48,640 nt of DNA, from contig JAZSAE010000027.1 in the NCBI GenBank assembly GCA_045601705.1, positions 1 to 48,640 of the forward strand, written 5' to 3'. Position 1 is the stretch's first letter. Each line of letters opens with the position of its first letter. This DNA comes from Clostridia bacterium (GTDB taxonomy: Bacteria > Bacillota > Clostridia > Christensenellales > UBA1242). This document shows positions 40,236 to 42,508 of this stretch, in pieces. The translations under genes were made by a program, and so were the position numbers. The notes below the pieces were generated by a model, which was given only the letters and a program-made list of their open reading frames with translations, did no database searches and was not told where the DNA came from.

Positions 40236-40952
40236 TTAATTATTGATAAAATTTCTAATTACATCAATCGGCAAGGCAAAACAAAAACCATACACAACAG
40301 TCCCAGTACTGTCCCTCAAGCGAAAAGTAGTCAACCCAACTAGTTTACCAGTAGCATCAAGCAAAGCTCCGCCACTATTCCCCTCTGTAATATTTAAGGA
40401 ACACTGGATTGCCGTTATATCTTTACCATTTTTAACGATATTTAACCTTCGCTGAGAAATAATTCCACTTGCTATAGAAATACCATAATTTTGAGCGTTA
40501 CCAATTGCATATACCGTTTCGCCTTCATAAACTTCACCATTTCTCAATTTGACCGGTGTAGCAATATCCGTACAAGGCTCAACACTAATTAAAGCTAGAT
40601 CGTCATCATAATCAATTTTTTCTAACATAGCATTCATATATTCATCTCTATCAGAAAAACGAATTTGTATATTTTCAAACACTTTAGTTTCTGTATACTC
40701 TTCATAACTCACAACATGAGCATTAGTGACAAACAATCCACCGTCCCCAACACAAACAGCTGAACCATACATAATTATGTCATTAGTAAATGATTTCACT
40801 TCAACAACAGTATGTAAATTGTCATTATAAATTTTTTCAGCAGATAAAGTTCCATCTGATCTAAAAAAAATCAGAAAAAGAGATAAACACGACATTAAAA
40901 TCGCTAAACCAGTAATTATTCCAATAACAATTGTCTTTGCATTATTTTTCAA
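40236..40952 (-). CDS. Membrane-anchored trypsin-like (S1/HtrA-type) serine protease
   Basis: Triad contexts TNAHVV, DDDLALI, GNSGGALLD. N-terminal TM segment. TTG start overlapping the upstream stop. Confidence 0.85.
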   Translation of the reverse strand: MKNNAKTIVIGIITGLAILMSCLSLFLIFFRSDGTLSAEKIYNDNLHTVVEVKSFTNDIIMYGSAVCVGDGGLFVTNAHVVSYEEYTETKVFENIQIRFSDRDEYMNAMLEKIDYDDDLALISVEPCTDIATPVKLRNGEVYEGETVYAIGNAQNYGISIASGIISQRRLNIVKNGKDITAIQCSLNITEGNSGGALLDATGKLVGLTTFRLRDSTGTVVYGFCFALPIDVIRNFINN

Positions 40953-41385
40953 TTTGATTAACCTTTATGTCCGTCGCAGTGAATGTCAAATAGCCTAAAC
41001 CTGCTGGTTCTTGACTTTCCGGACTCCAAATCAAACAATAAAAAGTGAAAAGCCCATCTTTAAAATATAAATCATGATTTAAAAAGAAAGAACCGACCAA
41101 CGGGTATTCTTGTTCAACAATACTTCCCTCTTTAAAAACTATTTGATTATATCGTATAACACCCTGCGAATTATCAAAATCAATAATTAAATCATTTCCT
41201 TGTTTAAGGACCGCCTTAATTTTACAGTCATGCAACGAAAAATGTTCATTCCAACCGACACGTCGCAAAGCGACACTCATCATTCGCAAATCTTTCTCTG
41301 CGATAATTTGTTTATATTCAACCCCATTTTCAGCGGTTGCGGCAAAATTTAAGTAATCTTCCTTTGTGGAATATCGCGTACTCAC
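40942..41385 (-). CDS. Hypothetical cytoplasmic protein (147 aa)
   Basis: GTG start behind a strong SD AGGAGGG (41399-41393). Translationally coupled to the protease gene. No family recognised. Confidence 0.6.
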   Translation of the reverse strand: MSTRYSTKEDYLNFAATAENGVEYKQIIAEKDLRMMSVALRRVGWNEHFSLHDCKIKAVLKQGNDLIIDFDNSQGVIRYNQIVFKEGSIVEQEYPLVGSFFLNHDLYFKDGLFTFYCLIWSPESQEPAGLGYLTFTATDIKVNQIEK

Positions 41386-41401
41386 AAAAATTCCCTCCTA
41401 T

Positions 41402-42508
41402 TTATTGGTTGTAGATACCATCCACTGGAGTACCGAAAAAAGAGTGTCCCCCCACACGACCTAACAAGTGATAATGACAGTAATAACCAATACCTTTATG
41501 TACTTCCATCTCCGTAGCGCCACCACTAGCAGCGACAGCCAAATCCCGTGCCCACATCGACGATATAGTCCAAAAGTTCTGTCCCATCTTTATCGGCTCT
41601 ATACATAAGCTACGCTTAACAGGTACTGGAATAATTCTCAATGAACTACCAACTAAAAAAGCTGGACAATACATCGCTTCATTTTTTCTTTCCAATTCAC
41701 GAGTAAGCTCAGCCAAAACCTCAGCTGTAACTGTAATTGCATCTGCCAATACATACACACCAACAGCAACTGCAGCGATTGTAGCTGCAGTAACAGCAAT
41801 CACCGATGTAGTTGCTCCAACTGCAATTACACTTGCTCCAACTGATGCACCAACTCCAGCAACAGCTACAGCTCCCACCCCAGCGGTCGACACTACCACA
41901 GCAGCAACAGCTACCACCGTCGCTGCAACAGCCACTACCTTTGCGACTTTTTTAACAGCGTTAAATAACTTCCCAAAAAAGCCACAATTATTTACCATGT
42001 CAACATTTGCCATTTCACTCATTAACACAGGCTCACCATCTACATTAAACACCGCATCAATTTTATTATTTTCATCATAAAAAACAGAACCTTGCAATGT
42101 TTCACTTTCTATAATGTCATCAAAATCCATAAAATTAACTGTTAAATATATCAAGTTGTTCACTGCATCGTAATCAATATTATATTTAACATTAACTGTA
42201 TTTCCCTCTATAGAGTCATCAAGTCCTAAATTATCAATTTGTTCTTTTGTAACCGAAAAAGATTTTTCGGCATCTAGTGAAACACGTTCTTCTTTTGTTT
42301 CCAAAATATACGAATCAAACGATGTATCCAACATAGATTGATAATCAATGTCAGCGACAATAGTTCTTGTCATTTTTTCATCGTTATAATCGAATGTTCT
42401 TATCCTACTATTCCAAATAAAAGTTACACTTAATAAAATTCCTAAAATAACAGCGATACTAGTAAATAATATGTTTGTTTTTTTAATTATCACACTTTCT
42501 TGTACCAA
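41402..42508 (-). CDS. Hypothetical membrane protein with a long Ala/Val/Gly-rich glycine-zipper-like segment and a His-rich C-terminal domain
   Basis: N-terminal TM segment, then a roughly 150-aa domain, then about 90 aa of AVAATVVAVAAVVVSTAGVGAVAVAGVGASVGASVIAVGA.... The C-terminus reads HKGIGYYCHYHLLGRVGGHSFFG. No in-frame ATG lies near the start (TTG 42508 or GTG 42493). Confidence 0.6.
   Translation of the reverse strand: MVQESVIIKKTNILFTSIAVILGILLSVTFIWNSRIRTFDYNDEKMTRTIVADIDYQSMLDTSFDSYILETKEERVSLDAEKSFSVTKEQIDNLGLDDSIEGNTVNVKYNIDYDAVNNLIYLTVNFMDFDDIIESETLQGSVFYDENNKIDAVFNVDGEPVLMSEMANVDMVNNCGFFGKLFNAVKKVAKVVAVAATVVAVAAVVVSTAGVGAVAVAGVGASVGASVIAVGATTSVIAVTAATIAAVAVGVYVLADAITVTAEVLAELTRELERKNEAMYCPAFLVGSSLRIIPVPVKRSLCIEPIKMGQNFWTISSMWARDLAVAASGGATEMEVHKGIGYYCHYHLLGRVGGHSFFGTPVDGIYNQ

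Follow-up and report, generated by a model that had tools for sequence, protein, structure and literature searches.

The window analysed here, a 48,640-nucleotide stretch of contig JAZSAE010000027.1 from a Clostridia bacterium (GenBank assembly GCA_045601705.1; GTDB order Christensenellales), carries three close-packed minus-strand genes encoding proteins of 368, 147 and 238 amino acids (aa), which we read, with a probability of about 0.78 for the whole interpretation including its proposed mechanism, as a three-component polymorphic toxin system of gut-type Clostridia, here called S1-PTS by analogy with the published S8-PTS. The components comprise (i) a predicted toxin in which, according to family alignments, a constant carrier bears one of many C-terminal toxin domains that are exchangeable between members, (ii) a DUF4085 protein that behaves as the putative cognate immunity protein, and (iii) a dedicated trypsin-like serine peptidase anchored by a transmembrane (TM) segment. 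What defines a polymorphic toxin is a constant N-terminal region combined with diverse C-terminal toxin domains (Zhang et al. 2012, PMC3482391). In the family described here, a constant N-terminal trafficking region is joined to unrelated C-terminal toxin domains, the gene in the immunity position co-varies with the toxin domain, the neutralisation itself being what we infer, and both orphan toxin pieces and orphan immunity genes exist.

An earlier note, made from the sequence of the window, had described a three-gene operon and had likened it to a toxin/immunity or membrane-stress module. The operon stands, the three co-directional genes being real and forming one unit. The toxin/immunity half of the proposal is strongly supported, whereas the membrane-stress half is not supported, given a protease that lacks a PDZ domain and co-occurs specifically with the toxin family. 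In the following, the window locus (WIN) is compared with other genome stretches (L0xx) and with related proteins (P0xxx); L010 is JAZNFA010000008, from the metagenome-assembled genome (MAG) of a Clostridia bacterium.

The carrier region and its C-terminal domains

A word-indexed search discloses 15 relatives of the 368-aa protein in which the N-terminal part (~265 residues) is conserved and the C-termini are mutually unrelated in the alignment. A profile of this N-terminal part extends the family to 374 clusters at 50% identity, 272 of them with E<=1e-10, the match always lying at the N-terminus of proteins of ~350-530 aa. The Pfam toxin-domain scan, which covered 37 genome copies and 116 representatives, reveals Ntox35 (five cases), Tox-REase-5, Ntox37 and DUF4258 (three each) and Colicin_D (two) on the scaffold, together with single cases of Tox-GHH, WHH, Colicin-DNase, a barnase-type Ribonuclease and Tox-PL-2. 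In all, at least 10 Pfam toxin families and several unannotated types are found on one scaffold; the relative P0014, for instance, bears Tox-REase-5 at its C-terminus. Protein pairs with N-terminal parts 86-98% identical display unrelated C-terminal parts, as in P0050 and P0051 (98% versus 37%). The 37 genome loci belong nearly all to uncultured Clostridia, including Christensenella-like bacteria, Candidatus Coproplasma, Gallimonas and Acutalibacteraceae, with one from Anaeroplasmataceae, and each of five MAGs contains two copies.

The four-part layout proposed for the 368-aa protein in the earlier note, with a TM anchor, a domain, an Ala/Val/Gly-rich stretch and a C-terminal domain, is borne out (Table 1). 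The N-terminal domain (~145 aa) is invariant at G140, D151, D157, E159, S164 and G176 among the 37 genome copies, and its AlphaFold2 (AF2) model, with a predicted local distance difference test score (pLDDT) of 75, is mostly β. It shows no Pfam match and no significant PDB match, either by sequence profile or by fold (Foldseek, E<=0.001). At the level of the whole protein, the Pfam and NCBIfam scans return nothing for the window's toxin, and single-protein sequence searches of the PDB found nothing.

The hydrophobic stretch comprises 79 residues in the window and 72-93 aa across the family; 86% of it is Ala, Val, Gly, Ser or Thr, Kyte-Doolittle windows reach 2.5, and the sequence probably forms two to three membrane segments. 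The small-xxx-small spacing, or glycine zipper, previously read into this stretch does not exceed chance: [GAS]xxx[GAS] is seen 16 times where shuffled sequences give 14.5 ± 2.2 (p=0.33), and GxxxG once where they give 0.5 (p=0.42). The locus therefore has no statistically supported glycine zipper, the periodicity being no higher than the composition predicts. The toxic role that the same note had hinted at for the stretch is also not upheld, since the stretch is part of the constant carrier and the predicted toxic module is the interchangeable C-terminal domain.

The C-terminal domain of the window's protein, the so-called HxH...H type, is the commonest C-terminal type, found in 61 of the 169 full-length family members. 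Its signature reads sIYT...A..lA...GY[YF]xH[YF]H...HxF[YF]G, with A320, Y342, H345, H347, H355 and G359 invariant, and the three invariant histidines make metal binding plausible. The same core of ~55 residues recurs in a longer subtype, YYHFHD..HIWYG (hhalign probability 97.8%, E=1e-12). The AF2 model (pLDDT 82, predicted template-modelling score 0.78) displays the order α-β-β-α-β-α-β-β-β, the second half being β-α-β-β-β, and places H345/H347 and H355 on the last two strands. No significant match to this domain was found in Pfam, in PDB sequences (profile search), among PDB folds or among the viral folds of BFVD (Foldseek, E<=0.001). Besides copies on this scaffold, the HxH...H profile search retrieves only 10 short stand-alone or fragment proteins (P0162-P0171), some of which may be assembly fragments. 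One of them, P0168 (161 aa), is a chimaera in which an N-terminal part resembling the N-terminus of the protease (a TM segment, then SVVEVKAYT) precedes an HxH...H C-terminus, and it is probably a recombination remnant.

The downstream gene and the serine peptidase

The 147-aa protein matches DUF4085 (PF13315) with E=1.6e-8 and 34.9 bits, against a gathering cut-off of 24.1, over profile positions 90-199 of 205 only; NCBI labels its homologues as DUF4085 proteins, and it displays no hydrophobic segment. Among 41 distinct loci, the genes directly 3' of the toxin fall into many unrelated clusters, each tracking one toxin subtype, with agreement between subtype and downstream cluster of, for example, 6/6 for HYHLGNLS, 3/3 for the subtype paired with DUF4085, and 3/3, 3/3 and 2/2 for further subtypes. 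A DUF4085 gene lies directly downstream of the toxin only in the window, L010 and L011, matching their toxin subtype, and further immunity-like downstream genes are present in L017, L018 and L036.

The predicted localisation of the downstream proteins follows the same pattern. The proteins downstream of HxH...H toxins are all of cytoplasmic type, and those of the G[FA]xxG[WFY][IV][IV]G subtype (L039, L043 and L045) bear a lipoprotein-type signal in 3/3 cases. As these latter proteins are lipoproteins or signal-bearing, an envelope-targeting toxin is implied; that localisation tracks toxin type is the behaviour expected of immunity proteins, which are located where the toxin acts. With their unannotated C-termini, L039, L043 and L045 add another toxin subtype to this scaffold. 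As a separate observation, in one HxH...H sub-clade (L023 and L025) the putative immunity role falls to a BspA-type leucine-rich-repeat protein of 420 aa (LRR_5, E=2e-62).

Four DUF4085 homologues (62-81% identical) occur in L047, L048, L049 and L051, where the surrounding 4-5 kb hold neither toxin nor protease. Immunity genes orphaned in this way are a typical feature of conflict between bacteria, as in acquired interbacterial defence clusters.

The 238-aa protein matches Trypsin_2 with E=5e-23. All 30 distinct homologues retain the H79/D118/S193 triad (100%) and display an N-terminal TM segment, in agreement with the earlier reading of an anchored trypsin-like protease with an intact H/D/S triad. 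The protein ends ~30 aa past the catalytic Ser, shows no PDZ match, and matches only the catalytic part of the HtrA/DegP/DegS models (TIGR02037, 96.6 bits against a cut-off of 416). Of 46 stretches with a toxin, 39 also carry the protease gene, corresponding to 34 of the 41 distinct loci; six of the seven protease-less loci are cut by a contig end, and only L006 is clearly without a protease. The gene neighbourhoods thus show that a dedicated TM-anchored trypsin-like peptidase with an intact triad travels with the toxin-immunity pair. The usual gene order is protease-toxin-immunity, with toxin-immunity-protease in the window, L010, L011 and seven others; the co-occurrence of the three genes elsewhere, a check that the earlier note had proposed, is thereby observed. 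The same two arrangements are reported for the subtilase of S8-PTS (PMC9424270).

Proposed mechanism, alternative readings and known systems

In the mechanism proposed for S1-PTS, Sec would insert the precursor with the N-terminal domain outside the cell, and the extracytoplasmic peptidase would cleave the carrier, leading to a toxin that is matured or released from the producer surface. Candidate cleavage sites are the invariant TRT[IV] motif past the anchor and a KKVAK patch ahead of the hydrophobic stretch. The Ala/Val/Gly-rich segment would first anchor the toxin and later help the C-terminal domain to cross the membrane of a neighbour cell. The HxH...H domain may then act as a metal-dependent enzyme on a cytoplasmic target, and the cytoplasmic DUF4085 protein would bind and neutralise it in the producer and its kin. 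A more tentative proposal, to which we give somewhat less than even odds, is that of an undescribed, self-contained delivery route in Gram-positive gut anaerobes, comprising a Sec-inserted toxin with its own translocation segment and a dedicated, surface-anchored S1 protease that matures it, with no type VII secretion, Rhs or phage-like machinery, and with a new His-cluster fold among the tips. Hydrophobic helices of the carrier are thought to insert in the target membrane and aid toxin entry in the prePAAR/transmembrane-domain effectors of the type VI secretion system and in the pore-forming colicin hairpins. Secretion apparatus, segment position and lineage differ from those described here, and the likeness would be functional only.

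Several points weigh against the S1-PTS interpretation. Toxicity, immunity and cleavage are all read from sequence, and the toxin status of the HxH...H domain rests on its position and on analogy, the profile search never placing the domain on LXG, Rhs or other carriers. The best Foldseek PDB matches of this domain are nearly all vicinal oxygen chelate (VOC) enzymes, whose β-α-β-β-β modules bear their metal ligands on the sheet, at non-significant values (E>=0.3, TM-score about 0.3) and with no sequence match, and the modelled resemblance is a lead only. The hydrophobic stretch is flanked by lysines on its N-terminal side and by acidic residues on its C-terminal side, and two, three or four spans are possible; the C-terminal domain might consequently face the producer's cytoplasm, which would complicate the secretion model. 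Finally, all four DUF4085 homologues examined outside toxin loci are orphans, an observation that suits orphan immunity but also allows an independent function.

The main alternative is a self-directed, membrane-tethered toxin-antitoxin or abortive-infection module. In it, the hydrophobic segment would hold the toxin domain in the producer's cytoplasm until an envelope or phage signal triggers cleavage of the N-terminal domain by the extracellular protease, in a manner comparable to regulated anti-sigma factor proteolysis, and the freed toxin would kill or arrest the producer. Three hydrophobic sub-segments following an outside N-terminal domain would place the C-terminus in the cytoplasm, where the immunity protein is also predicted to reside, and the protease domain matches, generically, the protease modules of defence proteins in PADLOC. 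The PADLOC matches, however, are limited to these generic ones of the protease domain and one weak match of the DUF1963 neighbour, with none for the toxin, the DUF4085 protein or the fourth gene. Moreover, the subtype paired with lipoprotein-type downstream proteins (3/3) implies an extracytoplasmic toxin domain, and orphan immunity genes, toxin-less immunity arrays, C-terminal swapping and multiple copies per genome are hallmarks of inter-bacterial systems, making a self-directed module unlikely.

Slightly less probable still is the reading towards which the emphasis of the earlier note leaned, in which the Ala/Val/Gly-rich stretch is itself the toxic pore-former and the C-terminal domain an accessory. 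Pore formation by glycine-zipper peptides does occur in some toxins (CdzC/D, TelE and VacA, for instance); small residues abound in the stretch, which is very hydrophobic, and a few family members show weak SseC translocator matches on it. Nevertheless, the stretch is constant and in relatives is joined to nucleases and RNases, which are toxic without a pore; the downstream gene co-varies with the C-terminal domain and not with the stretch; the zipper-type counts given above equal the shuffle expectation; and most downstream proteins, including that of the window, are soluble rather than membrane proteins. Housekeeping envelope quality control, with an HtrA-like protease acting beside a small chaperone and a membrane protein that serves as substrate or adaptor, draws some colour from the match to the catalytic part of the HtrA/DegP/DegS models but is effectively refuted by the toxin domains found on the scaffold and by the co-variation of the downstream gene. 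Also against it are scores far under the family cut-offs (96 bits against 416), the absence of a PDZ domain, a partner that is hypervariable at its C-terminus and bears bona fide toxin domains, and a cassette that is patchy in distribution, multi-copy and mobile, and the membrane-stress/HtrA reading was rejected on the PDZ-less protease and the hypervariable partner.

The closest published analogue of S1-PTS is S8-PTS, which combines an S8 subtilase and a BetaH-domain polymorphic toxin with an immunity protein, in both Bacillales and Actinobacteria (Li, Tan & Zhang 2022, PMC9424270); compared by description only, the present locus is a variant with a different peptidase and carrier. Both systems comprise a dedicated secreted or anchored serine peptidase, a polymorphic toxin with a Sec signal and a variable immunity gene, and in both the toxin repertoire is rich in nucleases and RNases and the constant domain ends with a basic patch. 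S8-PTS includes a VOC-like toxin, S8-VOC1, with four conserved His on a sheet (PMC9424270), to which the histidine cluster of the window's tip may be likened by description, not by sequence. On the other hand, the peptidase here is of the S1/Trypsin_2 type, which has another fold than S8, and is TM-anchored, with no S8 match found. The carrier comprises another ~145-aa domain, beta-rich and set beside BetaH, which follows the signal peptide in S8-PTS, by description only, followed by a ~80-aa hydrophobic stretch that is not described for S8-PTS toxins. The hosts of S1-PTS are uncultured Clostridia of the gut or rumen, both Christensenellales-like and other.

PrsW-peptidase-dependent polymorphic toxins contain an intramembrane PrsW domain with eight TM segments fused to the toxin, and membrane proteolysis is proposed to release the latter (Zhang et al. 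2012, PMC3482391). Like S1-PTS, they have a constant N-terminal region embedded in the membrane and C-terminal toxins that vary and include Tox-REase-5, and they occur mainly in Gram-positives, but here the peptidase is a separate single-pass S1 gene, and the Pfam scans detected no PrsW domain. HtrA, DegP and DegS (S1C) share the trypsin-like catalytic domain, the H/D/S triad and the N-terminal membrane anchor; the 238-aa protease differs in having none of the one or two C-terminal PDZ domains of HtrA/DegP proteases, in scoring far under the equivalog cut-offs and in neighbouring a toxin instead of envelope-stress genes. Literature searches returned no description of this system, of a function for DUF4085, or of polymorphic toxins in Christensenellales, in line with the earlier view that no named system matches, and the combination of this protease, carrier region and toxin tip seems undescribed.

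Cassette boundaries, neighbouring genes and significance

In a blastn comparison, the window and L010 are 98.2% identical over 2695 bp and match in two more segments, beyond which the similarity ends. The common cassette covers about 2.95 kb and its flanks in L010 are unrelated, showing at the sequence level that the cassette moves between genomic contexts. The unit also runs past the coordinates first given for it, to a terminator-like hairpin (Table 1).

Table 1. Coordinates of the S1-PTS locus and of its parts in the window
Feature	Position	Strand	Basis or detail
Cassette common to window and L010	39754..42706	n/a	blastn; flanks unrelated
Predicted polymorphic toxin gene	41402..42508	-	368 aa from TTG 42508, or 363 aa from GTG 42493
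N-terminal signal anchor or signal peptide, residues ~12-33, preceded by KK	42410..42475	-	Hydropathy peak 2.0; in all full-length homologues
Constant N-terminal domain, predicted extracytoplasmic, residues 41-186	41951..42388	-	Motifs TRT[IV], IDAVxNVDGE, LLSEM, NCG[WF]F
Ala/Val/Gly-rich hydrophobic stretch, residues 187-265, end of constant region	41714..41950	-	Position and character conserved
Variable C-terminal putative toxin domain, HxH...H type, residues 266-368	41405..41713	-	Commonest tip in family
Codons of invariant H345, H347, H355 (putative metal or catalytic cluster)	41444..41476	-	Alignment; AF2, last two beta strands
Putative cognate immunity gene, DUF4085, cytoplasmic	40942..41385	-	147 aa; GTG start with AGGAGG
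Membrane-anchored PDZ-less trypsin-like (S1) serine peptidase, putative toxin-processing enzyme	40236..40952	-	Trypsin_2 match, 238 aa
Decayed fourth gene (pseudogene of 184-aa protein intact in L010)	39845..40175	-	Comparison with L010
Terminator-like hairpin and T-run, end of operon	39822..39844	-	Conserved in L010

All three genes require non-ATG starts, because the homologues keep full N-termini and the first in-frame ATGs lie too far in, at M46 of the toxin (past the TM segment), M35 of the 147-aa protein and M20 of the protease (within the TM segment). The TTG and GTG starts proposed in the earlier note are therefore retained, including the GTG of the 147-aa gene with its strong Shine-Dalgarno sequence (AGGAGG 8 nt upstream) and the TTG of the protease gene, which overlaps the stop of the upstream gene. 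Both candidate starts of the toxin remain in Table 1, the 98%-identical L010 copy beginning at the GTG. The earlier remark that such starts are unlike the rest of the window is not confirmed: in the mechanical list of open reading frames (ORFs), TTG or GTG is the first possible start in 24 of the 55 window ORFs of >=100 aa. Local GC rises to 0.41, against ~0.31, a difference that we attribute to the Ala/Val/Gly codons. A promoter scan was uninformative (11 sites against 14.5 expected). The gene for tRNA-Ser(gct) lies at 42922-43011, 414 bp upstream of the toxin gene, and inspection of 39500-43150 for att-like or flanking repeats or tRNA-linked integration gave AT-rich chance matches only.

The decayed small genes noticed earlier at 39865-40175 are real remnants: two small overlapping ORFs derive from one 184-aa gene, intact at L010:8334-8888 and broken in the window by deletions of 166, 5 and 73 bp relative to L010. 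A 210-aa homologue is located at L051:1061-1693, in a toxin-less array beside an orphan DUF4085 gene, an arrangement that suggests an immunity-type family without a Pfam model; the fourth gene is possibly a second or orphan immunity gene.

The DUF1963 (YwqG-like) gene at 38526-39731 on the plus strand (E=3e-25), which the earlier note had counted with the locus, lies just outside the cassette common to L010 and was rejected as a component of the system on that ground. Its DUF1963 domain is preceded by a ~180-aa N-terminal region with hydrophobic segments, an unusual membrane-linked form.

Elsewhere in the window, positions 26976-32980 of the minus strand contain five tandem diverged paralogues (398, 382, 313, 309 and 328 aa; 21-29% identity, E 1e-5 to 1e-27) with no obvious signal peptide in the N-terminal residues viewed. 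Four of the five were scanned and show no Pfam match at E<=1e-4, the 398-aa protein (26976-28172) not being in the scan. Two adjacent minus-strand paralogues with N-terminal TM anchors, at 35860-36537 and 36676-37188, are 53% identical over 151 aa and display no significant Pfam match, with sub-threshold Imm17 only. Further along the minus strand, the ORF at 45074-45976, which from its translation we take to be triose-phosphate-isomerase-like, carries at its N-terminus ~50 extra aa that overlap the end of a presumably phosphoglycerate-kinase-like ORF at 45822-46874, named likewise from its translation; a downstream ATG is probably the true start of the former.

In the gut and other dense communities, competition between strains is shaped by polymorphic toxins. 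Christensenellales-like Clostridia are abundant but largely uncultured, and the family described here has hundreds of diverged members, often with several copies per genome. A TM-anchored PDZ-less Trypsin_2 gene beside a protein with the NCG[WF]F motif offers a genomic marker for mining toxin and immunity families. The family would add a new carrier and peptidase type to the known trafficking modes, and its hydrophobic carrier segment may account for the passage of nuclease toxins across a Gram-positive membrane in the absence of a dedicated secretion machine. Further additions would be a three-histidine toxin domain of compact size (~60-100 aa) and, for DUF4085, the part of immunity protein to this domain.

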